DNA of 36,348 nt from a virus, in IMG/VR virus record IMGVR_UViG_3300009551_000036, positions 1 to 36,348 of that record. The stretch is one strand, 5' to 3'. The notes below the pieces were generated by a model. That model searched no databases. It was given only the letters and a program-made list of their open reading frames with translations, and was not told the DNA's origin. Positions 2,988 to 19,672 of the stretch are shown in pieces; the first letter of the stretch is position 1, and the number at the start of each line of letters is the position of its first letter. The position numbers and the translations under genes were made by a program.

Positions 2988-5213
2988 TCACGGCGAGACT
3001 GCTACCGCCTCCCTTTTCATGGATTCAAAATCAACGGGAATCTGTTCCATCTCAGTGAGCCAACTTTCGGCAACTTTCTCCCAAGAAAGCGACTGAGGCT
3101 TAAAGCTCTGAAACGCTTCCCGTTCCCATCGTTTTTCACGTAAAGCTTGAAGGGTCGCGTTTGTAAAATTGCGAAACTCATCGCTTGTGACGCAATCGTG
3201 ATTGAGAAGCGTTGCCATGCCTGACTTTTCGGCTAGAGCCAAGGTGTCCTTAAGTCCACCCAAACGTCGGGTCACTGGATAGACTCCTGAGGCAATCATT
3301 TCCATTGCCGTAATGCAGCTCGTTTCGATGAAATCGCAGGGATGAAGCCAAATGACGGCTTCTTTAAAATGCCTGATCAGCTCATTCTGCTCCGTTTTGC
3401 CGTGGTATTTGACCCAGGGTCTGGAAGCAAACATCCCTTTCAATTTGTCATGGAGCGCCTGATGCCCCCACTGAGGGAGATGTTCGATGCCGTAAAAGAC
3501 ATGGAGCTCAAGATCAGGGAATTCTTTCCTGACCTCATCACAGACCAAAATAGCTCGATCGAGTCCGCGATCAGGACTAGAGGGAAATACGATCTTATTT
3601 GGGTTTTTAGCGGGCTTAGGCCCCAGGAACCTGTCGGGGTGAATTCCGTTTCTTGAAATCCAGATTTTGTCATAAGGAACGAGTTGCATGTTATGCATGA
3701 AATCCGCGTGAAACGGAGTCAGACAAATCGCCTTCACATAATTGGAAGTCTCCTCAATGCCAGGGGTGATTAAATCATGGCACCAAGCATAAGTGGGAGC
3801 ATCGGTCAGTTTCACGTTGTGGCGCCAAGAGATATGCAGATAGGGCTTATATTGAGAGAAGTAATGCTGAATCTGAGCCACAGGTAAGTACTCCACCCCG
3901 CGGATCGTTTTAATGTCAGCTCTCGCATTGAAGACTTTGACTTTTCTGCCTGAGAGTTTGGCCAGGTGTTCTGCCATTTCAATACAAGCGGTCTCAGACC
4001 CCCCCATTCCTTGCTTTCGGTACTCTTCTCCATCCCAGACATAAGGAGAGGTCGGAGTGCCTGAGAAGACAATCTCGCGAGTGGGCTTGGCCGCTTTCCT
4101 TCCACACATCAATGTGCTCATCTTCGTCAATTCATCTAAGATCTGCTTGGTCTCAGGATGCTTGTATTCGCCATGACACCGAAAGGCCACTTCCTTAGCC
4201 TCATCGATTTTCCCGAGATTGGCATAGATCCTAGCCAGCTGATTTTTGGGATAAACGCCATACGCATCATCATGAAAGAAAATAGGAGAGACGACTTGAT
4301 TGCCCGCCGGCAAATAGCATTTGCATGCGGCTTGATAAAACGGAACGGCATTCAAAAACTGGTTCATTTTCAGATAACAATCGCCCACGGCCACATAAAG
4401 CTCAGCTCGCTGAGGTGCGAGTTGAATAGCAGTCAGTGCAATTGAAATGGCTTTGTCATACTGACCAAACTCCATGTAAGAGAGAGTCAAATACTGCATG
4501 GCCAAAATCCGGTCATGCATCTCCATTTCTTCTCCACTTGAGGTGACCTCTTCTAGCTTCCGGATCGCATCAAAGCGTTTGCCTGCTTCAAAGAGTTCTT
4601 TGCCCCAATAGTATTTCATCCGGGCATCCAGTTTCGATTGATTCTTCTCAAGGAGACTGAGATTTCTGCTTCGGTCTTTGGCAAGGTCCATCTCGGTTCT
4701 CATATGCCTCACTCGCCAAGAGGGAATGAAATTGACCTTGGTATCAGGACCAGGAACAATGCCTTCATGAACGAAGTATTTCCATTTCAGGTTCTTTGAT
4801 CGCTTCGTCACTCTTTCTCTGACAAAAGTACAAGCCGGAGTCCCATCAGGTTTTGAGGCGTAGACATAATTGGCTAACCAGAAATCAGCCAGATGCATGA
4901 TATCGTTTCGCCAAGATAGAAACTCGTCTCTGCCTTCTAAGATATCATCTCCGTCCATCCAGAAGATATAATCGGTCTTTAAAGGCTCATAGCTGACATT
5001 TCTGGCAGCTGCAAAATCATTGCACCAAGTGAACTCATAGACCTCAGCTCCGAGTTTAGCTGCGATTTCCTTGGTATCATCGGTTGATCCGGTATCGGTA
5101 ATACAAATTTGGTCAAAACATCCTTGAATCGATTCAAAAACGCGTGGCAGATTTTCAGCCTCGTTTTTGACAATCATAGCAAGTCCAAGAGTGGGTCTAA
5201 GGTGTTGAGTCAT
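2988..5213 (-). CDS. Three-part glycosyltransferase: N-terminal GT2-like domain, central TPR repeats, C-terminal GT4/GT1-like domain (741 aa)
   Basis: N-terminus LAMIVKNEAENLPRVFESI..ICITDTGSTDDT...WMDGDDIL gives GT-A nucleotide-binding and DxD-type motifs. The middle has repeated helical-hairpin motifs (YYWGKELFEAGKRFDAIRKL; GQYDKAISIALTAIQLAP; LYVAVGDCYLKMNQF; LARIYANLGKIDEAKE). The C-terminus has GMGGSETACIEMAEHL typical of GT-B enzymes. Confidence 0.7.
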   Translation of the reverse strand: MTQHLRPTLGLAMIVKNEAENLPRVFESIQGCFDQICITDTGSTDDTKEIAAKLGAEVYEFTWCNDFAAARNVSYEPLKTDYIFWMDGDDILEGRDEFLSWRNDIMHLADFWLANYVYASKPDGTPACTFVRERVTKRSKNLKWKYFVHEGIVPGPDTKVNFIPSWRVRHMRTEMDLAKDRSRNLSLLEKNQSKLDARMKYYWGKELFEAGKRFDAIRKLEEVTSSGEEMEMHDRILAMQYLTLSYMEFGQYDKAISIALTAIQLAPQRAELYVAVGDCYLKMNQFLNAVPFYQAACKCYLPAGNQVVSPIFFHDDAYGVYPKNQLARIYANLGKIDEAKEVAFRCHGEYKHPETKQILDELTKMSTLMCGRKAAKPTREIVFSGTPTSPYVWDGEEYRKQGMGGSETACIEMAEHLAKLSGRKVKVFNARADIKTIRGVEYLPVAQIQHYFSQYKPYLHISWRHNVKLTDAPTYAWCHDLITPGIEETSNYVKAICLTPFHADFMHNMQLVPYDKIWISRNGIHPDRFLGPKPAKNPNKIVFPSSPDRGLDRAILVCDEVRKEFPDLELHVFYGIEHLPQWGHQALHDKLKGMFASRPWVKYHGKTEQNELIRHFKEAVIWLHPCDFIETSCITAMEMIASGVYPVTRRLGGLKDTLALAEKSGMATLLNHDCVTSDEFRNFTNATLQALREKRWEREAFQSFKPQSLSWEKVAESWLTEMEQIPVDFESMKREAVAVSP

Positions 5214-8781: not shown

Positions 8782-9232
8782 CGTGAATTCTCCTTCTTTC
8801 AATCCGATTTAATGATGAAGTGTTAATGTCATTGGTTGCCCTAGCAAAGTCCCGTCTCAGATCATAAGCTCGTGCACGCATTTCATTCCGAAATGCGCGT
8901 TGTTTATTGTCCCTTCGTCTTTGTCGGTCCTCACAGAAGCGATCATAATCACTGTCGTCTCGCCAGCCGTCGATCTTTTGCATTTGAGCCAAAATCGGCT
9001 CTATGCCCCAATCCACAGGCTTTCCTGTTTCAATCCAATTATCGGTGAGAGGGAGGACTAGTTGTTCCCAATCAAAACCAAACCAAAGAACGCAATCTCC
9101 AGGCATTCTGTAAAAATCATACCCTCTGCGTTTCCTTAAGATAGCTAAGGCGCCGTCCATGTAACGGCGGCTCACCAAATCAGAATCGTACCGTTTAAGA
9201 AGTCCGTTCATTTGTCTAAGCTTCTGATCCAA
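8765..9232 (-). CDS. Hypothetical protein (155 aa, TTG start) with an Arg-rich C-terminal half
   Basis: RBS TAAGGAG followed by 7 nt and TTG. Directly downstream of the capsid stop. Confidence 0.5.
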   Translation of the reverse strand: MDQKLRQMNGLLKRYDSDLVSRRYMDGALAILRKRRGYDFYRMPGDCVLWFGFDWEQLVLPLTDNWIETGKPVDWGIEPILAQMQKIDGWRDDSDYDRFCEDRQRRRDNKQRAFRNEMRARAYDLRRDFARATNDINTSSLNRIERRRIHDGYRG

Positions 9233-9243
9233 AACGAATCTCC

Positions 9244-11221
9244 TTATGGGCTAATGTAGTTTTGCAAACAAGCGGAGGCTGATGGCTTTTCCAAAAACAG
9301 ATTGGCAAAAAGCCTGAGACGCGCTTCGAATGCGTCACTTCCAATTTGGGCGATCAGGTAACTGCCCGTTTCGTCCGCCCATTCCATCTCGGCGAGTACG
9401 TATTTTTTCAGGTTCCCTTCTGTAATAAAGAAGAACCGTGTAGGGCAGGATTGATCCGCTAGAATCGGAGCACCTGAGAAGTTGAGGTAAACCTCATCCT
9501 TACTCGTGAATGTTCCGTCTCCAGTGACCTTTTCACCGATGTATCTGCGATCAGCGACCAATACAGTCTTGTTATCGCCTTGGCTTTTTATCCTAGGCTT
9601 CTTAGGCTTCTTTTTTCACCTAAGCTCAGCGTACATTTTCAGTCTTTTGAACTGTCGACCACTCTTGGGGGCATTGTTGGTTTCATCCCTCAGCCCCTAC
9701 GCGTTACGCAGCTAACGAAATTTCTTCGTCAGTTTGCTCGGGATTGGCATCGCAGCGTCCCCCGATTTTGGTCAATTTTGAATCGCCCATTTTGGTTAAG
9801 CGATTGTAATATCTCTCAGAATCGAAATCGCAATAAACGACAGAAATCTTCCCACCGCCTCGCCGTCTAGCATTATTCAATGCTTGTTGCATGGCGTTTA
9901 GATTCAGCTGTTGACCTGCTAAATCAATATTGTTTCCTTGGAAACTTGGAAAGAGGCTCCTGTCAATATTATAGATAGAACTGGTGCCGCCGTCCAAGCT
10001 CGTCAAGAGGCCCTGGATTTCGTTGCTCACTGTTCCAGACCGAATGACAAGATTGTTGGCTGCCACACTCACATTATTATCCAATGTCAGAGTAACCGTC
10101 GCTGTTCCAATTCCGCTCATAGCTGTAATCTGAACGTTATTGGCCAACACGTTGTTATTGGTGTCGACGATATCGATCTGAGTTCCGATATCGAGAAACT
10201 TCTCAGGGGCTTCAGCTGAAGCAATCCCTGCTTGGGTATCCCGATTCTGAATCGAAATGGAGTTCGTTCCGACAGCATTAGCAGAAACGGTCGCGAGACG
10301 GCCATTGCCGTTCCACCCCAACTGACGATTCACGTCCCATTTGGAATCGTTCACATTCTGTTACCCCTAGCCTTTCGGCTAGTGGAGGAACCGCTTCGGA
10401 TTCCTCTCAACGGCTTCTTTGGTTATACCGTTGTTCAGACTATCGCATCCCTTTCGGGCCCTCTCACTTAGTCGTTCAGGCTGCTTTCGCTTGCCCCTTG
10501 TCACCCGCTTCCGGGCTTCCAAGTCAATCAGAGTGGGTTTTAGAGGGACTGTAAGTACTTGAAATACTTGAGTTAATCCCTCAGTCATTTCAAATTCCAT
10601 CGCTGTAACAAATGCGCCCTTATCACCCTGGGAGCTTTTGATCAGCGGGCCTGTGAGACCGAACAAACGATCACAGTTTTGAAATGACTTCTGCGCTTCG
10701 GTCATGCAGCACGCAGATAATTATACTTCGCAGCAATAATGGCTTGCTGAGTGGTCTGTTGACCGATTTTGGGTAGGTTTCCGCCATCACTGGTAGCTCC
10801 GATACCCTGGTTACGTCTTACCTTCACAGGTCGAATGACTTGTTGACCGTTCCACTTCTCTTTTCCCTTTTCAGCTCCCCTATAGAGCGGTAGCAAGTTT
10901 GTTATCGTCCAGGTTTTTTATCCCAGACTTCTCACCATTTTATTTCAGTGAGTTCAGCGTACATTTTCAACCATTTCTGGTTGCCGGGGACTCTTGGGAG
11001 AGTTTATGTCTCCTACGCGTTACGGACGGATCAATCCTTGATCTCGCCCTCGGTATTCCCGTCTCAGGGTCCACCGATACACCCCAGTTTTTCATTTTCT
11101 ACTTACGTAGAAAAGCGACCATTTTTACATAATCGTCATTGAATTGGGAAACGATTGGACCGGCATAGTAGTTCTTCAGAATCGCCAGGGCGTTTGCCAC
11201 GTTGGCGAATTGATTAGCCAT
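9244..11221 (-). CDS. Major capsid protein (HK97-fold-like), interrupted. Proposed coding segments, complement: 11221..11132, 10893..10711, 10669..10576, 10353..9799, 9563..9244. Mature product about 410 aa.
   Basis: GGAGG RBS then ATG at 11221 (MANQFANVANALAILKNYYAGPIVSQFNDD). Later pieces read LPLYRGAEKGKEKWNGQQVIRPVKVRRNQGIGATSDGGNLPKIGQQTTQQAIIAAKYNYLR / LFGLTGPLIKSSQGDKGAFVTAMEFEMTEG / (L)NDSKWDVNRQLGWNGNGRLATV...SERYYNR / LLVADRRYIGEKV...LQNYISP*. Together these match the recalled pattern of this capsid family (..Y.YGRI.v.GP.I.....GAF..A.E.E......NRq..GdG.G.LA.v). The gene follows the scaffold gene. Confidence 0.8.
9564..9798 (-). ncRNA. Group I-like intron 3 in the capsid gene (235 nt, no ORF), paralogue of intron 1
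   Basis: P1: exon AAUCGCU | UAACCAAAAUG GGCGAUU gives 7 bp with U.G at the splice site. It ends ...CGAUAACAAGACUG | UAUUGG. It shares these blocks with intron 1: cctacgcgttacg (9696-9708 vs 11012-11024), tcagcgtacattttca (9626-9641 vs 10954-10969), actcttggg (9661-9669 vs 10990-10998), ttgttatcg and tttttatcc. Splicing gives ...YYNR-L-LVADRRY in frame. Confidence 0.7.
10354..10575 (-). ncRNA. Group I intron 2 in the capsid gene (222 nt, no genuine ORF)
   Basis: P1: exon GAGGGAU (10582-10576) pairs with GUCCCUC (10549-10543), with U.G at the splice site. R-like UGAACGACUAAG and S-like GCGAUAGUCUGAAC give P7 GACUA (10473-10469) / UAGUC (10442-10438). P4/P5 is CUUG-GAA-GCCCG-GAAG-CGGGU-GA-CAAG. 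GAAA tetraloops occur at CCC-GAAA-GGG, GC-GAAA-GC and CUAGCC-GAAA-GGCUAG (10382-10367). It ends ...GGUAACAGAAUG | UGAAC. Length is divisible by 3 and joins GGA U|UG AAC in frame. Confidence 0.75.
10894..11131 (-). ncRNA. Group I-like intron 1 in the capsid gene (about 238 nt, no ORF)
   Basis: 5' exon ...GACGAU | UAUGUAAAAAUG GUCG gives a 4-bp P1 with a U.G pair at the splice site. It ends ...CGAUAACAAACUUG (terminal G) | CUACCG. A UUUUCUAC-GUAA-GUAGAAAA tetraloop hairpin is present. P7 candidate is GCGUA (in GUAACGCGUAGG) with UACGC (in AUGUACGCUGA). An alternative 5' splice site lies 3 nt downstream (after UAU). Confidence 0.65.
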
Positions 11222-11269
11222 GATTGGCCTCCTTGCCTTGTCTCTCTCAATTGCGTTTTAAGTTATGGT

Positions 11270-12118
11270 TCAGAATGCGCCTGAATCAATGTCACTCAGA
11301 GCTGCAGCGGTTGCTTCTTTAATGGATTTGAATTGTCTCGGAGCTTGCCCCGGATTTCCGCCTCCACGTCCCGCATCACTGCTTTTCCGATTGGCTTGAA
11401 CTTGCGCTTGAACCTGCTTTTTATAGTTCTTATCGGCAATCTGGTGATTACGGTCATGCACGCCCTTCCAAAGAGCATCCCATTGTTTATCCGAAATCCT
11501 GAGATTGCGGTTCATTGGGTCTGCTTCTTTGAGTTTATTGAGCAATGCTTGAGCGCGAGCCACCACGGCTTCCTCATCAGCAAAGGGATATTTCTGCGAG
11601 AGTGTTCGAAATTTATTATCGAGTTCTGCGGAAATAGCTGCGACTTCTTTTTCGCGAAAATTCTGCTCAAGCTGATTGATCCTCATTTCCATGGATGGAT
11701 CTAACCGGGCATAAGCATTTTGCTGAGATTGGCCTGGATTGGGATAATTGGGAGATTGACTGGAGTTTTCTAAGACATATCTCAGATAGCCATGAAACTT
11801 ATCTGGATAGATCGTTCGAAATTGTTCCGCCAAATGGGGATTAGCACGCACTCGGTCCAAATCGACAGCCAGGTTGTCGTAATATTTACGTTCCTGGGCC
11901 ATTTGAGCCGTTTTCTGGGTGTAATCGCCATGTCTCATGTAGCCGGTCTCCCAGTCTTTGAGAGGTCGGCCTCGGTACCGATAACGATCTGGATTCTCTA
12001 TCTCAATGGGTTCTTCAGCTTTTTTTGCTGATTCCGCAGGAGAAGGAGTCTCTAGGGTGCCGTTATCTAAACTCGGTTCGGAAGCAGGGACTGCTTCCTG
12101 AATATTTTGTTCTTCCAT
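11270..12118 (-). CDS. Putative scaffolding protein (282 aa)
   Basis: Lies between the portal-side genes and the capsid gene. Charged, helix-prone, Gln/Glu/Lys/Arg-rich sequence with an acidic N-terminus. Confidence 0.5.
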   Translation of the reverse strand: MEEQNIQEAVPASEPSLDNGTLETPSPAESAKKAEEPIEIENPDRYRYRGRPLKDWETGYMRHGDYTQKTAQMAQERKYYDNLAVDLDRVRANPHLAEQFRTIYPDKFHGYLRYVLENSSQSPNYPNPGQSQQNAYARLDPSMEMRINQLEQNFREKEVAAISAELDNKFRTLSQKYPFADEEAVVARAQALLNKLKEADPMNRNLRISDKQWDALWKGVHDRNHQIADKNYKKQVQAQVQANRKSSDAGRGGGNPGQAPRQFKSIKEATAAALSDIDSGAF

Positions 12119-12611: not shown

Positions 12612-15155
12612 TCATCGTCTCCTTGGGGGTAATCCCACCGGTCGCGGCGGCGACCCTCGTCCCTGCTTAGGCGGTCCTACGGGCGCAGGGCCCGGAGCTG
12701 GTGCTCCAGCTCCAAACTGTGCTTTTTTGGCCGCCATTCGGTCGTTGGCACCTGGGGGTAATCCGGCAATGGCTTCTCCACCTGCTCCAATGGGCGGTGG
12801 AGGCATTGGGGGAAGCGGAGGCATCGGAGTATTGGAAGGGCCTGGAGGCATGAGCTGATTGAGCCTGTCTTCCATCTGAGCTTCAAAAAGACGCCTAATT
12901 TCCTCAGGCAGCATTCCCCATTTATCGGATTTTCTGAATCGATTGAGCTCTTGGCACCAAAGGATGTTGTTATCCTTCTTATCGATCTCGACGAATTCGC
13001 CTTTTTCCAATGCGTCCATGCCTCGTTTGATTTGAGCCATGTCGATGTGTTGGTCTTCAAAGATTTCCTGACTCTGTCCAAATTCCAAAGCATCCAAGAT
13101 CTTCATTGCAACCGATGGATCGGATTTGGGGTCACCGAGAAGTCCCAGACTCATGGTATTGACGATGTCCTGGCGCTTGAGAGTCTTTGAATCAGGGAGA
13201 GTGGATCCTCTCACGACTCTCACATCCGTATTGCCTCTCAAAAGCCTGCCATCGAGTTCCCGGATAATGTATTCGCCTGATTTGCCGGCAAGTTTCATTT
13301 TGCGGGGCATTTCGTAATTCTTCTCCACCTGTTTTAGGATCTGACGAAACACTTTGGACCAAGATCGCTCTAAGAGTTCAGTGATGACGCTTAATCGAGT
13401 CTGATCTTGCTCCTGGAGAAGCTGAGCGCCAATAGCGGGTATAGAAGCAGAAGGCAGAATGCCGCGAGAAACGTCGCCGATCCCAAAAATATAATCCATA
13501 ATTTTGTCGAGACGCTCTTCTTCAGTGTAAGCGTATTCTGGGATGGTGGGGACGGGTAAGGGTTCGATGTTTTGAGGGGCTGAGGGCACGACATTGTAAT
13601 AAAGCACTTCTCCTGATTCATCATTCATGGCCTCTTGGGCAAGGCCGGAACCTCTCGGGGCTTTGTATTTGCCCGCAAGCATTCGTCTTGTCCATTCAGC
13701 CCTTCGTCTTAAAGTTTCATTATATTGATCCTGAATCGGTCTTGCATGAGTGACCGGAGTCTCACTGTAATATTTGCCGCCTATGATGGTATCATCAAAT
13801 TTGGTGAGCGGGATTTCTCCGATAGGCAAATCTTTGCTATCTAAGAACACACCATTCGCTGCAGCAATCATCCGTCCTTGAGGAAATTTGGCTGAAGGCT
13901 TTTCATACTTAATCATTTCAATCGCAGAATTTTTCATCTGCTCAGTCAACCCCCCTTGCGAAGGGCCGCGAGAATTGAGCGAATTGACCCGCATTTCATA
14001 CTGAGCAGAAAGAAGCCACGCTGCTTCTTCTTTCACTAAATGTCCTCGTTCTGGATAATTGGCCTGAAAGTAATGAAGCGGTCTGACTTTAGCCAGCATC
14101 AAATATTGAGCATCATCATCGGTTCTAGCAAAAGGATCTGGAAAGACCGAAAACGCCGATTCAACTTCAATATCGACATCTCCTTGATAACCCAACGTCC
14201 CATCTTCCAGGATCATCGGATCGCCTAGTAATGGGTTCCATTTCACATGAATATAGGAATGCCCACATTGCTGCATCCACATGTAAAGAAACAGGCGCTT
14301 CTTATTGACTTCCAATCTTTCGATTTGAGTGTTTAAGACCTGCATCGAAAGTTTCGCTGCATCCTTATCCTCAACATCATCTGTTTCTGGAACAATGTCG
14401 TATTCGGGTGGATTCTGACAAAGACGCGCTAATCGATTTTGAACCGTAGGTAAGATCTTATTGGCATGAATGCGGTTTCGTCTCAAGTAGGCACTGGCGC
14501 GATTGATGGGCTGAAACTGGCGCGCAGTCGTATTATACATCAGGCCGTCGTAGCCTAGGCAGTTATGGACTAAGATCCCATTGGCGAAATATTCATGGAT
14601 TGTCTCAATGGTTAGGTCAAAGACATGTTGTGGACCTACACATAAGCGCTTCACAAAACAAACGTCTTCATTCTTTTCTGAGATGACATGCATCCCGACT
14701 TGCAGATTTTGGGCTTGGACCCAGCCATAAGCTTTGGTGTAAATCTTATGCTCATCGGTGCATTTCAGAATCGATCCATCTGAGAAATAATGGTCATAAC
14801 AGGTCTTTGTGCCATTATCCCAGACTCGAAGAACACGCCGATACCCATCGCGTGTTTTAACAAGATCTTTCGTTGTGAGTTTCTCGATTGCGGTATAGCC
14901 ATTGGCCGTCGCAATGACTGAATCGCCTGAGACGCAATAGGCGCAGTTCGTCATCCAGATTCCCTCATGTGCAATTCGATTCGCACTCGAGCGATTGGAT
15001 TCCAGCTCAGCTCTTAATTTCTGAGCCATGTCGATTTCTTCAGAGGATTGATCACTGACGCTTTTGGGCTTTTTATTGCGATCTGGGTCCGTCTGCGACG
15101 ACTGGGCCGCAAAGGGCTGATTCCCCCCAAATAATGATTTCAATAAACCCGCCAT
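12612..15155 (-). CDS. Portal protein precursor (847 aa) containing a mini-intein and a Pro-rich basic C-terminal tail
   Basis: Largest head-module ORF, downstream of the terminase pieces. RBS AAGGA. The mature protein would be about 722 aa after intein removal. The portal assignment rests on size and position. Confidence 0.65.
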   Translation of the reverse strand: MAGLLKSLFGGNQPFAAQSSQTDPDRNKKPKSVSDQSSEEIDMAQKLRAELESNRSSANRIAHEGIWMTNCAYCVSGDSVIATANGYTAIEKLTTKDLVKTRDGYRRVLRVWDNGTKTCYDHYFSDGSILKCTDEHKIYTKAYGWVQAQNLQVGMHVISEKNEDVCFVKRLCVGPQHVFDLTIETIHEYFANGILVHNCLGYDGLMYNTTARQFQPINRASAYLRRNRIHANKILPTVQNRLARLCQNPPEYDIVPETDDVEDKDAAKLSMQVLNTQIERLEVNKKRLFLYMWMQQCGHSYIHVKWNPLLGDPMILEDGTLGYQGDVDIEVESAFSVFPDPFARTDDDAQYLMLAKVRPLHYFQANYPERGHLVKEEAAWLLSAQYEMRVNSLNSRGPSQGGLTEQMKNSAIEMIKYEKPSAKFPQGRMIAAANGVFLDSKDLPIGEIPLTKFDDTIIGGKYYSETPVTHARPIQDQYNETLRRRAEWTRRMLAGKYKAPRGSGLAQEAMNDESGEVLYYNVVPSAPQNIEPLPVPTIPEYAYTEEERLDKIMDYIFGIGDVSRGILPSASIPAIGAQLLQEQDQTRLSVITELLERSWSKVFRQILKQVEKNYEMPRKMKLAGKSGEYIIRELDGRLLRGNTDVRVVRGSTLPDSKTLKRQDIVNTMSLGLLGDPKSDPSVAMKILDALEFGQSQEIFEDQHIDMAQIKRGMDALEKGEFVEIDKKDNNILWCQELNRFRKSDKWGMLPEEIRRLFEAQMEDRLNQLMPPGPSNTPMPPLPPMPPPPIGAGGEAIAGLPPGANDRMAAKKAQFGAGAPAPGPAPVGPPKQGRGSPPRPVGLPPRRR
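14562..14936 (-). mobile_element. Mini-intein (125 aa, residues 74-198 of the portal ORF, +1 Cys at residue 199), no endonuclease domain
   Basis: Block A CVSGDSVIATANG. Block B ILKCTDEHKIY (TxxH). Block F VFDLTIETIHEYFANG. Block G ILVHN followed by C. Codons checked on the sequence: tgc at 14936-14934, aac at 14564-14562, tgc at 14561-14559. Confidence 0.8.
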
Positions 15156-15419: not shown

Positions 15420-15738
15420 TGTTTTTACTCGGAACTTTGGCTGTGTTAGTCCCCTGAATCACCTTGGCTTCATCATCCCCATAAAGAATTTGACCCAAAG
15501 GACGCTCTAATTCCTCTTTTAAGCGCTGAGATTTGCCAAATTCAGTCACTTTGACGGATTGGAAGATAAAGTATTCGGCATGGGGACCTAATCCCCCTTT
15601 ATTGAAATGATCGATGATTTCCTTGGAAGTTTCGATCCATTCCTGTCCTTCAATCGTTGCGCGGTGAATCTTGGAATAAAATTGGTTGAGAGTTTCTTCA
15701 GTCTCATTCAGACCAAGCTTCACGCCCTGAGCTTCCAT
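15406..15738 (-). CDS. Hypothetical protein (about 110 aa from the internal ATG; the ORF is open from 15846)
   Basis: The ORF overlaps the 3' end of the terminase nuclease gene. The start was chosen at MEAQGVKL to minimise that overlap. Confidence 0.4.
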   Translation of the reverse strand: MEAQGVKLGLNETEETLNQFYSKIHRATIEGQEWIETSKEIIDHFNKGGLGPHAEYFIFQSVKVTEFGKSQRLKEELERPLGQILYGDDEAKVIQGTNTAKVPSKNNGRR

Positions 15739-16516
15739 TTTGTGAGCTTTCGGTGAGGTGTTGGATATACCAGGACTCGTATTTGGGGTCGTTTGGACTG
15801 TGGGGTTGCTCAAGCTTCTTTTTCTCCCTTGTTGGATAATAAACAAGTTCCTCTAAACTGGCCAATGCGTCAAGGATATCATCGTGAGTTCCGCGGGGGA
15901 ACGCGTCATATTCATCCTCGAATTCAACCATTCCAGGGTAACAGAATAAATGTCCCCACTCGAATCTGGGGACTAGGCCTAAGATTCGAGAGGATTTAGA
16001 GATATTGTTTCTCCTAATGCCTTTTACGGGAAGCATTTTGTCGCGCTTGATCATTTCTTCTGAAATGAGATATAAAAGCGCCTCTTGATAACCCACGATT
16101 TCAATCCCGATGGCATCGAGTTCAAACTGCTCTTGAAGATCAAAGGCTTTATTAACAATCTGTGTCGGAGTCAGGCGATAGCGTGAAGCGAGTCTTAAAT
16201 ACCAATTCCGATCCTGATCAGCATAGACGACGGCGATGCCGGTATAGTCACTGTGCTTATGCTGGCCAATGGCTGGATCAATGAAAGCAAACTTAGTGCA
16301 TCCTTCTGGGATTTGAGTGGTGTATCTCAGCCATTCTTTTCTAAACTTCTTTTCCTCATCGGGGATGATGACGTTTAAATATTGGTTGGCAAAGAGATAA
16401 GACCCCATGGTCCGTCTGGCTTGATCTAAGAACTCTTGGGTCAGTCTTTCAGGAAAGAAAAGAGATCCATCGTCATTGATGGCCTTTTTATAGACGACGC
16501 TCCAGCGGTCGTTCAA
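15704..16516 (-). CDS. terL: Large terminase, C-terminal nuclease-domain fragment (270 aa, TTG start)
   Basis: RWSVVYKKAINDDGSLFFPERL..LFANQYLNVIIPDEE..FAFIDPAIG..YTGIAVVY..GIEIVGYQ..HDDILDALASL are RNase-H-like nuclease motifs of TerL. GGGAG lies 7 nt upstream of a TTG that overlaps the TGA of the upstream ORF. Confidence 0.85.
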   Translation of the reverse strand: MNDRWSVVYKKAINDDGSLFFPERLTQEFLDQARRTMGSYLFANQYLNVIIPDEEKKFRKEWLRYTTQIPEGCTKFAFIDPAIGQHKHSDYTGIAVVYADQDRNWYLRLASRYRLTPTQIVNKAFDLQEQFELDAIGIEIVGYQEALLYLISEEMIKRDKMLPVKGIRRNNISKSSRILGLVPRFEWGHLFCYPGMVEFEDEYDAFPRGTHDDILDALASLEELVYYPTREKKKLEQPHSPNDPKYESWYIQHLTESSQNGSSGREAWSE

Positions 16517-16881
16517 TACCCAGCTCCCTTATCGATTCTCATAGCAATAATCGATGTGGTGCCTAAGGAGGAAATATAAAACGAAGCAGGTCCTTCGATT
16601 TCAAAAATCTCAGGAATCATGGTCGCTCCGACGGGATGTAAGGGCCAACCTTTTCCGGAGAGAGCTGCTAGCGTTGCCCCTGCCATCGTGGTTCCAAAGA
16701 AAAAGTTCAGGTTACTACTCCCAATAGCAGGAGGGAGGATCTCACAAGAGGAACCGAGGAGTGCTTTCATCGCCCAGGTCTGTTGCCCTAAAAGAGGCTG
16801 ACAGAAAACAGCCAGAGTAGGGCCGACTGGAACGATGACTTGAGTGATGCCTAGAGTAAAGATGCTATCTGCGAGATTCAT
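16513..16881 (-). CDS. Hypothetical protein (122 aa), paralogue of 17349..17705
   Basis: Aligns with the 118-aa ORF: LG.T.VIVP.G.TLAVF.QP..GQ.......G..CEIL.PA........F.GTTMAG.TLAALSG.G. Lies between the two terL fragments. Confidence 0.6.
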   Translation of the reverse strand: MNLADSIFTLGITQVIVPVGPTLAVFCQPLLGQQTWAMKALLGSSCEILPPAIGSSNLNFFFGTTMAGATLAALSGKGWPLHPVGATMIPEIFEIEGPASFYISSLGTTSIIAMRIDKGAGY

Positions 16882-17346
16882 TTAGTTTCCTAATCGAAAG
16901 ATTGAAAAATAAATTTGTGACGCGTTTCCAGACTGCAAAGACGGGCTCCCAGCATTACACGAACCTTTGATTACTACATTATCCCCATCCGCTAATTGAA
17001 GAATATCACCGACAGGACAAAATTGGGCTGTCATACTGGTTGCAAGTCGATTGATTGTTTGACTTGTCGCTACTCCATTCACATAGATTGAATTCTGAAC
17101 GACATTATTGACCGCCGCAGCATTGAAGGAATAGACCAGCTGGGAATGGAGATGATACTTTCCTCCTAAGCCGGATCCCACAACCCAGACGCCATTACTC
17201 ATGCTCATTCCGCCGACGGTGTCAAAGCTCTTATTGATCCAAACAATCGGCGCGTCACCACCACCGATTGAGCTATTTGAATCAGTAAATCGACCTGCAA
17301 CAAGTGGATTATAAAAAGGCACTGTGGAGAAAATCTCTAATGCCAT
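16882..17346 (-). CDS. C1q/TNF-like jelly-roll domain protein (154 aa)
   Basis: IVWINKSFDTVGG..NGVWVV..GGKYHLHSQLVYS...IYVNGV......LQLADGDNVVIKG.....IYFSIFRLG matches the recalled C1q-domain pattern (F..v..N.G....G.F....G.Y.f.....v.L..NG....l.L..GD.V.....FsGfLl). Confidence 0.5.
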   Translation of the reverse strand: MALEIFSTVPFYNPLVAGRFTDSNSSIGGGDAPIVWINKSFDTVGGMSMSNGVWVVGSGLGGKYHLHSQLVYSFNAAAVNNVVQNSIYVNGVATSQTINRLATSMTAQFCPVGDILQLADGDNVVIKGSCNAGSPSLQSGNASQIYFSIFRLGN

Positions 17347-17348
17347 GT

Positions 17349-17705
17349 CTATTGACCCTCAGCCTTTCCAAAGATCGCATGCAGGACCGATGTAGCCCCT
17401 GTGGATGAGAGGTAGTAATACGCAGGTCCGCTCAGGGATAAGGTCTCATTGGTGGATAGGCAATAGCCTGAACCAGACAAGGCAGCTAAGGTTCCCCCTG
17501 CCATAGTCGTTCCTAAGAATATGTTAAATGCGACCTGAGTAAAAGCGGGACCCAGGATTTCACAAGTCCCACCTGAGAACATTTTGAGCAGAGTGCTCAC
17601 CTGTCCTGCTTGAGGTTGCATGAAGACAGCAAGTGTGGCTCCGATTGGAACAATGACGCGCGTTGCCCCTAAACTCCACACCGAATCAAATGAGGTAGTC
17701 GCCAT
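17349..17705 (-). CDS. Hypothetical protein (118 aa), paralogue of 16513..16881
   Basis: See the paralogue alignment above. Same strand, and the pair flanks the C1q-like gene. Confidence 0.6.
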   Translation of the reverse strand: MATTSFDSVWSLGATRVIVPIGATLAVFMQPQAGQVSTLLKMFSGGTCEILGPAFTQVAFNIFLGTTMAGGTLAALSGSGYCLSTNETLSLSGPAYYYLSSTGATSVLHAIFGKAEGQ

Positions 17706-17755
17706 GATAGAAGTTTAGGTGTCTCCACCCGGTTAATCAAGGTTTGTTCGTGAAC

Positions 17756-17926
17756 TTACTCCTGACCATCATGCTTGATATCCATCAAGTATTCTCGATC
17801 CAAGGTTTGGATCATATGGCGAATGGTATCGGCAACCTCAGGCTTTCCAGAAGCCTCCATCTCTTTCATAAACTCATGCAGGTTCCAAACTAAGTCTAGA
17901 ATCCTCTTATGGGTAACTGACATCAT
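17756..17926 (-). CDS. Small hypothetical protein (56 aa), below the ORF-track cutoff
   Basis: RBS AAGGAG (17938-17933), then ATGATG. Hand translation: MMSVTHKRILDLVWNLHEFMKEMEASGKPEVADTIRHMIQTLDREYLMDIKHDGQE*. Confidence 0.5.
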   Translation of the reverse strand: MMSVTHKRILDLVWNLHEFMKEMEASGKPEVADTIRHMIQTLDREYLMDIKHDGQE

Positions 17927-17946
17927 AATGAACTCCTTACCTTAGT

Positions 17947-17976
17947 ATTATACTCTAATATAACGCATTAAGTCAA
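17947..17976 (-). promoter_or_regulatory. Sigma70-type promoter inside the terL-splitting region
   Basis: Minus-strand TTGACT (17976-17971), 18-nt spacer, TATAAT (17952-17947), followed by the RBS and ATG of the 56-aa ORF. Confidence 0.5.
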
Positions 17977-17987
17977 GCCAGGGTGTG

Positions 17988-18215
17988 TCAGGGATGATCC
18001 TTTTCTAGATCATCGACCTTCTCGCGTTCAGCTAAGGCGATATTGAGATGATGGATCAGCATGGCGACATCTTGGCTGAAGTACTTGCTTTGGAGCAGGC
18101 TCAGGAAATACTTCACTTGCTCATCGGGGCCTGTAAAGAGATCACGAAGCAAAGCCTTAGCGTTTGCTCGGGTGGTTGTCATCCAGTCATGCCGTCGTTG
18201 GGGATTGATCATCAA
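17988..18215 (-). CDS. Hypothetical small protein (75 aa)
   Basis: ORF with a 4-nt overlap onto the upstream 69-aa ORF. Confidence 0.45.
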   Translation of the reverse strand: MMINPQRRHDWMTTTRANAKALLRDLFTGPDEQVKYFLSLLQSKYFSQDVAMLIHHLNIALAEREKVDDLEKDHP

Positions 18216-18421
18216 TGCCTCGTGAATTTATCCCAGTCAGAAATGGCTTCAGTGACATTAATCACCCCGAGCTTAATCATAGAGGCTTTGTCGCAGAGCT
18301 TATCGATATTCGTTTCGTTTAAGACTTCAGCTTTAGCCGCTAAGTCAGTCTCAGCCGTGATCTTGGCAGTCCCATAGATTTCAAGCTTATAGACCACATG
18401 CCATTTCTTTTTCATTGTCAC
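18212..18421 (-). CDS. Hypothetical small protein (69 aa)
   Basis: ORF beginning ATGACAATGAAAAAG. Its start codon is 17 nt from the divergent plus-strand ORF. Confidence 0.45.
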   Translation of the reverse strand: MTMKKKWHVVYKLEIYGTAKITAETDLAAKAEVLNETNIDKLCDKASMIKLGVINVTEAISDWDKFTRH

Positions 18422-18438
18422 TATTGTACAGGAAAGCC

Positions 18439-18714
18439 ATGGCTTTTAGATTTTTGCAGCATTTACCGGCTTATTTTGATGACAGCATTGCCCGTTTTGA
18501 CATCACCGTGGAAAATACCGAAGAATTGCTTCGCTATCCCAAAATTGATGGATGGAAAAGAAATCATCAGGATTTCTATCGTTTCGTGCAGTCAAAGTAT
18601 GGCGATAATTTGCACCTTATGGCCGAGCATAACAATGGCAAGAGTTGGTATGTCTTAGGAACCGCTTTTACCGAGGACCTAGGTTTGCCTCAATGGGAAC
18701 CTAAGAAGGATTAA
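18439..18714 (+). CDS. Hypothetical protein (91 aa from ATG 18439)
   Basis: AGGAAA lies upstream of ATGGCTTTT. Plus-strand ORF embedded in a minus-strand operon, between the terL halves. Confidence 0.45.
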   Translation: MAFRFLQHLPAYFDDSIARFDITVENTEELLRYPKIDGWKRNHQDFYRFVQSKYGDNLHLMAEHNNGKSWYVLGTAFTEDLGLPQWEPKKD

Positions 18715-18717
18715 GAA

Positions 18718-18993
18718 ATGCTGAGACTAAAACAGAAGCTAGCCCATGATTATTGCGTAGATCTTGTCCCTGAAGTTTTACCAAAAGATAATAAAGATTG
18801 GTATGAGGCAACTCTAGCATGCGACGTTTTAAGGGCTCAATATGCTGCAATTTATTTGGCTGGATTCGAAAAAGCACGAGAGTTGGTCTGGGAGACTTTA
18901 GGAGAGGAAATGTATTCCGTCCAACCCAAGATACAACATCTTATCCTGAATGTGGGGGAGGGAGAAGTGGATCTATCAGTCCCTGAGGCTTAA
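18718..18993 (+). CDS. Hypothetical protein (91 aa); its 3' end overlaps the 3' end of the terL ATPase fragment by 53 nt (convergent)
   Basis: RBS AAGGA lies 6 nt upstream of the ATG, which is 3 nt after the previous stop. Confidence 0.45.
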   Translation: MLRLKQKLAHDYCVDLVPEVLPKDNKDWYEATLACDVLRAQYAAIYLAGFEKARELVWETLGEEMYSVQPKIQHLILNVGEGEVDLSVPEA

Positions 18994-19672
18994 TCTCATT
19001 CTCTAAAATATATCCCAGACAATCGTCTGCGGCATAACGCGTCCCGATAACGACCATCACTCCATGGGGCTCTAGAATCGACGTATTAAGCTTATAGTGA
19101 TTCACGACCTTCTGTCTTTGCTCAGGAGTCTGGGAGTTTCGTTCAGAGTTTAAATCATCCATAATAATGCAATCATAGTGCTGTCCAGTCTTGCCGGCCC
19201 CGACACCTGAAGCCGTCACACTCGATTCCTTCAAGATCTTTCGCCTCTGAGCAATCGTAATACTTCCCTCAGCCCATTGGTTGGATCTAAAGGACCCAAA
19301 GAGTTGGGTCACTCGGGGAAGCTCAAGCTTGCCCCTGATCTCGCGGATGAAGTTCTTAGAATTCTCATAGATCTCTGAATCAATCAGGATCCTCAGATTC
19401 GGATTATTCATCAATGACCAAATGGAATACCCGACTACTCCTATCGATGATTTAAACGTGCCCCGAGGGACGCAGATGAGCTTGCGTTTGGTTGGAGCTT
19501 CTAAGGCTTCGATGATTTCGCCATGCGTATATTTAGTCAGATCGGAATATTCCAATAGATCTTTGCAGGTGAGATAGAGGCTATTCTTATAACGCGTTTT
19601 GATGCGTTCAGTTAAAGCGATGCGTTGGATTTGAGGGTCATACTTACCGAGTTGTTTGGAATAAGTGGCCAT
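18941..19672 (-). CDS. terL: Large terminase, N-terminal ATPase-domain fragment (243 aa)
   Basis: Walker A-like VPRGTFKSS. Walker [11 protein letters not shown]. Coupling motif [11 protein letters not shown]. It ends ...[26 protein letters not shown], exactly where homologues continue into the ..W.v...A...dG..lfPe.. segment found at the start of 15704..16516. Confidence 0.85.

Follow-up and report, generated by a model that had tools for sequence, protein, structure and literature searches.

The major head protein (capsid) gene of a phage genome in IMG/VR (record IMGVR_UViG_3300009551_000036, positions 1–36,348, the whole of the stretch analyzed and referred to below as the window) lies on the minus strand and is interrupted at four places. 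Judged from their sequences and predicted folds, two of the interruptions, which we call A and B, are very probably group I introns that are small, splice themselves, and lack an endonuclease gene. Both are members of one very large phage family of group I (IA-like) introns, within which they fall into different sub-lineages, so that two acquisitions from the family pool are the most likely explanation for their presence in one gene; we strongly favor separate acquisition over duplication of one intron inside the gene. The surprising object in the span from A to B is a different one, namely, a core-less insert of 47 nucleotides (nt) that carries a splice-site guide of its own.

A capsid gene with four interruptions

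The capsid gene extends from an ATG at position 11221 to a stop at position 9244. From its 5′ end, it is interrupted by A (11131–10894, 238 nt), by the 47-nt mini-insert (10710–10664), by a group I intron of another family that we call M (10575–10354), and by B (9798–9564, 235 nt). The coordinates and lengths of A and B are as given in an initial annotation of this DNA, which had numbered them introns 1 and 3; with four interruptions in the gene, A is the first and B the fourth. When all four segments are removed, a frame of 1236 nt results that encodes 411 amino acids. The spliced protein aligns without gaps with many uninterrupted 411-residue homologues (75%–86% identity) and matches phrog_14242 (PHROG 14242), a major head protein, and the Pfam domain SU10_MCP is present in some of the homologues.

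All five exons can be placed on this alignment. Exon 1 (11132..11221, minus strand, as are all features of the gene) encodes residues 1–30, ends in ..GACGAU, and is collinear with the uninterrupted homologues; exon 2 (10711..10893) encodes residues 31–91 and ends in ..CUGCGU; exon 3 (10576..10663), which is kept in all homologues, encodes residues 92–120, FGLTGPLIKSSQGDKGAFVTAMEFEMTEG, plus the first base of L; exon 4 (9799..10353) encodes residues 121–305 plus the first base of the codon for L306 and ends in ..AAUCGCU; and exon 5 (9244..9563) encodes residues 306–411 and the stop. A gene model with four exons, 383 residues, and a single 354-nt “middle intron” was wrong: the 411-residue homologues revealed that it lacked a 28-residue exon, and finding this exon led us to recognize both the mini-insert and the actual extent of intron M (222 nt). 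The initial numbering of the introns lacks the same exon.

Borders and structure of introns A and B

In both A and B, the 5′ exon ends in a U that forms a G·U wobble pair with an internal guide (P1), the intron ends in G, and excision keeps the reading frame. The guide of intron A (10894..11131), AUGGUCG at 11116..11122, pairs with CGAU|UAU, and the guide of intron B (9564..9798), GGGCGAUU at 9781..9788, pairs with the exon sequence AAUCGCU, each with a U·G pair at the splice site, as seen in sequence and fold. The match of each guide to its own exon (GGCGAUU with AAUCGCU and GUCG with CGAU) had been pointed out in the initial annotation and holds, with the last exon U placed in the wobble pair. 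As predicted from these features, each intron would find its own 5′ splice site by pairing its guide with the last 4–7 exon bases, with the G·U wobble at the cleavage site, and guanosine-initiated transesterification would remove the intron including its terminal G and restore the 411-residue frame.

Intron A, which ends in ..CUUG, has P1, P2, P3–P9, and P9.1; intron B ends in ..ACUG and has no P2. The minimum-energy fold of A recovers P1, P2, P3, P4, P5, P6, P7.1, P8, P9, and P9.1, and P7 (GCGUA/UACGC) crosses P3 to form a pseudoknot. A P3/P7 pseudoknot of this kind is typical of group I introns. The two strands of P7 in intron A are found together with their junctions in GUAACGCGUAGG (J6/7 and the P7 5′ strand; 11012–11023) and in its partner UGAAAAUGUACGCUGA (J8/7 and the P7 3′ strand; 10954..10969). 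A further hairpin, P7.1, is located between the P7 5′ strand and P3′ (GGAGA/UCUCC in A, GGGGC/GCCCC in B), and three of its five pairs covary in the family. With P7.1 in this location and with P9, P9.1, and a GAUAACA tail at the 3′ end, A and B are of the subgroup IA type.

Neither intron contains an endonuclease open reading frame (ORF), the longest internal ORF being 42 codons long, in agreement with what had been annotated, and the Pfam families HNH, GIY-YIG, and LAGLIDADG have no match in the 20 window ORFs that were scanned, a subset of the ORFs present.

One large family of phage introns

A and B share five collinear blocks, GTAACGCGTAGG, CCAAGAGT, TGAAAATGTACGCTGA, GGATAAAAA, and CGATAACAA, as first reported in the initial annotation. 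The 16-mer and 12-mer blocks each occur exactly twice in the window, once in A and once in B, whereas the three longest blocks recur as exact matches in more than 119 IMG/VR contigs in a pattern scan, a number that is a lower bound, and in ∼40 GenBank phages. The annotation had considered that the blocks might be a generic repeat of non-intron contexts; generic they are, but to introns. They constitute the invariant catalytic core of the family, i.e., J6/7-P7, J7.1/3, J8/7-P7′, the P9.1 loop, and the 3′ tail. BLASTN with the 3′ halves of A and B matched ∼40 GenBank phages, with Staphylococcus, Clostridioides, Enterocloster, Lactobacillus, Arcanobacterium, Alicyclobacillus, and Leptolyngbya as hosts, as well as one crAss-like phage; in two of the phages (crAss cr6_1 and Leptolyngbya Lbo-JY46), an annotated intron endonuclease is located inside the homologous element. 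A family covariance model (R1) scores A at 184.1 bits and B at 185.3 bits, and when the family model is run over the whole window with filters off, only A and B match, the next best score being 4.9 bits.

Covariation was analyzed in a MAFFT alignment of 22 diverse family members onto which the structure of A was transferred (9 helices, 45 pairs). Standard pairs are formed in 90.6% of the cells, compared to 30%–44% when the partners are slid by 1–3 columns, and 31 of the 45 pairs have changes on both sides; in 500 shuffles, the observed covariation score was never reached. The covarying helices are P3 (in all 6 pairs), P5, P6, P7.1, P8, P9, and P9.1, whereas P4 and P7 are invariant or nearly so, with the same P7 pairing, GCGUA/UACGC, in all 22 members. 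The selection on RNA structure that the annotation had deduced from A and B is thus evident across the family.

Against this background, the paired differences between the stems of A and B are ordinary helix covariation. The two hairpins to which attention had been drawn are P9 (CUCAC/GUGAG in A, CUUAGG/CCUAAG in B) and P9.1 (GUCUGG/CUGGAC in A, GCCUAGG/CCAAGGC in B, the latter with one A·A mismatch), and paired differences between the two introns are found in P3, P4 (the last pair), P5, P6, P7.1, and P8 as well.

The family to which A and B belong is very abundant in uncultivated phages, and one of its sub-lineages recurs in the major head protein genes of unrelated phages.

Probable separate acquisition of introns A and B

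As parts of the invariant family core, the shared blocks are uninformative about the relationship between A and B; together with the paired stem changes, they show family membership and structural constraint and are no proof of copying. What carries information is how A and B rank among their relatives, that is, among the matches listed. When the conserved 3′ halves are compared, A and B rank 20–21 of 50 among each other's listed relatives. Over the core (P3 to the 3′ tail), they are 62% identical, rank 27 of 32, and appear as sisters in 2 of 200 bootstraps, while the best listed relatives of A are L095 and L108 (73%) and that of B is L108 (72%). In an alignment based on the covariance model (113 hits, 75 distinct), the identity between A and B is 63%, the mutual rank among those listed is 42 of 74, and they are sisters in none of 100 bootstraps. 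Overall, the nearest listed relatives of A and B reach 72%–74% identity, and A is no more similar to B than to family members taken at random. A groups with L045 and L138, and B with L047 and L108. Peripheral structure follows the same grouping: A has a P2 hairpin, its P7.1 is short, and its P6 reads GGNCGA..AAGGA..; in this it resembles L045 and L138. B, which is devoid of P2 and has a long P7.1 (GGCUGAG..GAUGAAA..AAUGCC), resembles L108 and L047.

Several of the nearest relatives in other phages are likewise located within head protein genes. A tblastn search with the capsid protein against the loci that hold them gave no match, and PHROG profiles were therefore needed to identify their hosts; by these profiles (14242, 9953, and 334), the introns of L045 (about 4204–4395), L108 (515–726), and L095 (7347–7553) interrupt major head protein genes. 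The position of the L045 intron seemingly corresponds to the NYLR|FG hot spot of the capsid family.

Co-residence without close relationship is not peculiar to this gene. Many viral contigs hold two or three family members close together, and in nine of them besides the present one, no copy has a co-resident as its nearest neighbor among the listed members, the ranks running from 19 to 74. These contigs are L086 (copies at 923–1132, 2490–2695, and 4507–4710), L123, L056, L052, L055, L049 (which has no row of its own in the tabulation), L066, L088, and L103. It is a speculative thought that selection against similar introns in one transcript, through exon skipping or recombination, could be the cause of such divergence between co-residents.

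Alleles without introns, which had been proposed as a check in the initial annotation, do exist. In L005, the closest uninterrupted allele (86% amino acid identity), the 5′ flanks are identical at both the A and the B sites. When metagenomes were scanned with the capsid protein, just eight loci were recovered, all uninterrupted, and L267, the sole candidate from a search with an exon-5 fragment, proved to be a frameshifted contig with no intron.

The main alternative is a duplication of one intron inside the gene, either by reverse splicing or with trans-acting help, after which the copies diverged, with re-tuned guides and compensated stems. A and B do occupy one gene, are similar in size, have no ORF, and share a family and even an eight-member clade in one tree; moreover, the M-type intron described below, which also lacks a homing endonuclease gene, clearly relocates in this gene, with matching guides at seven positions within ∼110 nt. 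There are precedents as well, in the tape-measure protein (TMP) introns IVS1 and IVS2 of a Bacillus cereus prophage (PMC2504315) and in the introns I2 and I3 of Twort orf142 (PMC10136302). However, the known intragenic paralogues are 80%–92% identical, compared to 62%–63% for A and B, and other phages hold dozens of introns that are closer to A, and likewise to B, than the two are to each other. The near-absence of sister pairing in the bootstraps, the differences in P2 and P7.1 (the long P7.1 of B being as in L108), and the lack of any relative of the capsid gene with A or B alone likewise speak against a duplication, which we consider improbable. Hence, of the proposal that A and B are paralogues that arose by intragenic spread, the homology is supported, as they are introns of one family, and the copying within the gene is not.

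Some observations weigh against the interpretation of A and B as separately acquired introns. Relatives closer than those listed may exist, and the comparisons cover ∼200 aligned positions. No relative in the protein collection has an intron at the A or the B site; the eight-member clade that contains both A and B appears in one neighbor-joining tree; and an ancient duplication, from which copies later passed to other phages, is, strictly speaking, still conceivable. Finally, Rfam gives no match in the window at the gathering threshold and none in the region 9000–11600 at E ≤ 10, RF00028 included. The model built from A, B, and their relatives nevertheless matches the tape-measure intron of Lactobacillus phage JCL1032 (93 bits, E = 6e-29), which GenBank annotates with a joined coding sequence and which RF00028 recognizes at 59.4 bits; because this family member is recognized by both models, the Rfam miss on A and B is a gap in sensitivity and does not speak against their identity as introns. 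Phage introns are under-represented in curated covariance models (PMC11878797).

The blank result in Rfam, the fact that splicing is read from the sequence, and the unusual number of interruptions in one gene could be taken to mean that A and B are not spliced and that they are assembly artifacts or else repeats or decayed intron remnants within a broken pseudogene of the capsid, but this is very unlikely, as their core helices are all intact without destabilizing changes, the exons show clear conservation at the protein level and yield a full 411-residue product, and the contig looks like a complete ∼36-kb phage genome with intact neighboring genes.

On the favored interpretation, A and B would have entered the capsid gene separately from the family pool, with no site-to-site copying inside the gene. 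Candidate routes of entry are recombination with an intron-bearing relative during co-infection, the action of a trans-supplied endonuclease that cuts the empty site, and reverse splicing.

Intron M

Intron M (10354..10575, minus strand, 222 nt) is a group I intron of a family other than that of A and B, with the core sequences GAACGACUAAGUG and GCGAUAGUCUGAAC and the guide GUCCCUC (10543–10549), which pairs with the exon sequence GAGGGAU. The 34-nt M-type core is found as an exact match in 107 IMG/VR contigs. Among phages with related capsid genes (L006, L263–L266, L268, L271, and L272), ORF-less M-type introns occupy seven positions within ∼110 nt of the capsid coding region: after ..TEG-L, ..AFV, ..SQG, ..DVG-S, and ..DMG, exactly after Arg91, and 4 nt upstream of the Arg91 site. 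The copies are 69%–82% identical, and in each the guide fits its own site, which suggests frequent short-range relocation of the M-type intron within the capsid gene, a mobility that is not seen there for A or B.

A separate arrangement of M-type cores is seen in the IMG/VR contig L194, where two of them (reverse strand, about 3385–3560 and 3680 onward) lie in tandem at a distance of ∼300 nt, shortly after the end of an HNH-AP2 endonuclease ORF.

The 47-nt mini-insert

The mini-insert (10664..10710, minus strand) is located between ..CUGCGU (Arg91) and UUCGGU.. (Phe92), a point at which exon 3 directly continues exon 2 in the homologues. An in-frame UGA is present, the reading frame is displaced by +2, and the last base is a G. 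Its most conspicuous part is the 12-nt guide ACCGAA|GCGCAG (10691..10702), the complement of the ligated exon junction, in which 6 nt pair with UUCGGU of the 3′ exon (P10-like) and 6 nt with CUGCGU of the 5′ exon (P1-like), with a G·U pair at the 5′ junction. The part that pairs with the 3′ exon lies 5′ of the part that pairs with the 5′ exon, the same order as in group I introns.

Inserts of this kind are present at the same site in four other phage lineages, L006 (3261–3305), L265 (960–1004), L266 (754–793), and L268/L269 (585–622 in L268), whose capsid proteins are 62%–78% identical to the one analyzed here. In all of the inserts, a leader with a fixed length of 8 nt and a stop codon in frame precedes an uninterrupted guide of 12 nt, a short tail leads to the terminal G, and the 6 + 6 pairing is perfect in all five lineages. 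The pairing is maintained by compensatory changes at synonymous codon positions (CUG/GCGCAG versus CUC/GCGGAG, and UUC/ACCGAA versus UUU/ACCAAA; UUG/GCGCAA in L270), and the Arg91 codon is CGU in seven of seven interrupted alleles, compared to 9 of 21 uninterrupted ones. P1, P10, the U at position −1, and the terminal G are thus found in every lineage, and the core is absent, since inserts of 38–47 nt are too small to hold one. The lengths of the five inserts (47, 45, 45, 40, and 38 nt, i.e., 2, 0, 0, 1, and 2 modulo 3) rule out that they are translated by read-through.

A complete M-type intron is located 30–105 nt downstream of every mini-insert. Among ∼36 capsid loci examined, only nine have an M-type intron, and a mini-insert without an M-type intron is seen in none. 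In L271, a full M-type intron with the guide GCGGAG is present at exactly the mini-insert site.

L270 (355–590) has the leader and guide of a mini-insert (UUGCGU|ACCGCUUAACCAAAGCGCAA) followed by a long insertion with an ORF of at least 54 codons; the insertion runs to the end of the 590-nt contig, short of a 3′ border. L270 may represent the long form ancestral to the mini-inserts.

Broader searches added no cases: patterns derived from the mini-insert had no match in IMG/VR or in GTDB genomes, and a generic search upstream of 131 M-type motif sites recovered the known cases and one match in L194, which we attribute to chance, as it falls within an HNH-AP2 endonuclease ORF that is intact.

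Our tentative interpretation, which we regard as a serious possibility though short of probable, is that the mini-insert is a natural core-less group I intron, derived from an M-type intron by deletion of the core and excised by the core of the downstream M-type intron in the same transcript. It would then be a non-autonomous intron that keeps the parts required for splice-site recognition and uses the ribozyme of its neighbor. We know of no natural example of a core-less insert that carries its own guide, and if the interpretation is true, this would be the first natural group I ribozyme that splices out a separate segment without a core of its own.

This interpretation has two rivals. In one, two separate cistrons would make up the capsid gene, with termination and reinitiation at the mini-insert. 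The last three bases of the five inserts (UUG, UUG, GUG, UUG, and AUG) are always in frame with the downstream exon, as reinitiation would have it; a terminal UG is, however, also usual for full introns in this setting. In the other, ribosomes bypass the mini-insert by a new and unprecedented mechanism, given that matched take-off and landing codons are absent. Bypass of the gene 60 type was rejected for this reason: the codons before the 3′ exon, i.e., the five triplets just listed, match none of the respective last sense codons ahead of the stop (GCA, GCA, GCU, CGU, and GCU).

Neighboring genes

Elsewhere in the window, a portal ORF (12612–15155, P22/SU10-like) contains a mini-intein of ∼125 residues at about 14562–14936 on the minus strand (CVSGDS...VHN|C), with the Pfam domains PT-HINT and Intein_splicing (residues 81–198) and no endonuclease domain. 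The large terminase gene (15704–19672, minus strand) is seemingly split into an ATPase-like ORF (19672–18941) and a nuclease-domain ORF (Terminase_6C, 16516–15704). The ∼2.4 kb between the two parts hold five or six small ORFs on the same strand, two of which (16881–16513 and 17705–17349) look paralogous; neither the A/B nor the M intron family was detected in this gap.

Comparison with known systems

A and B add to an already known kind of phage intron. Closest in setting are TMP-IVS1 and TMP-IVS2 of a B. cereus-group prophage, which are 80% identical overall and 90%–92% identical in the core (Tourasse and Kolsto, 2008; PMC2504315). There, as here, two homologous IA-type introns are found at two sites of one late phage gene, and the differences are mainly in P1/P10 and the peripheral helices; the B. 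cereus pair are true paralogues, however, whereas A and B are 62%–63% identical and not each other's nearest relatives. The BLASTN relatives described in the same study (the TMP gene of JCL1032, and phage ROSA; PMC2504315) are members of the A/B family. The JCL1032 tape-measure intron, which the covariance model places in this family, interrupts another gene in another phage and, unlike A and B, is recognized by Rfam.

In 1999, Landthaler and Shub reportedly described orf142 of Staphylococcus phage Twort as a gene with three group I introns. The 3′ domain of the Twort ribozyme may be similar in architecture to that of A and B (P9 hairpin, AAG, P9.1, and a GUAACA tail). As in the capsid gene, three small ORF-less group I introns interrupt one phage structural gene, and in Twort I2 and I3 are highly similar (PMC10136302, PMC11878797) and cause exon skipping. 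The three full introns of the capsid gene, in contrast, are from two families, the two from the same family are divergent, and there is the 47-nt insert in addition.

For the mini-insert, T4 gene 60 provides one comparison, with its coding gap of 50 nt that ribosomes pass by translational bypass (bioRxiv 10.1101/2022.08.31.505936). Both are phage genes with an untranslatable gap of 38–50 nt in which a stop codon is reached early in frame, but the mini-insert has no matched take-off and landing codons; instead, it is preceded by a U, has G as its last base, and carries a guide complementary to the ends of both exons. The engineered “spliceozymes” (PMC4094466, PMC4509937), in which a group I ribozyme acts in trans to take out a foreign intron, provide the other, as they demonstrate that a group I core can excise a core-less segment if base pairing holds both splice sites; in the spliceozymes, the guides are on the ribozyme, whereas here the guide is on the mini-insert itself.

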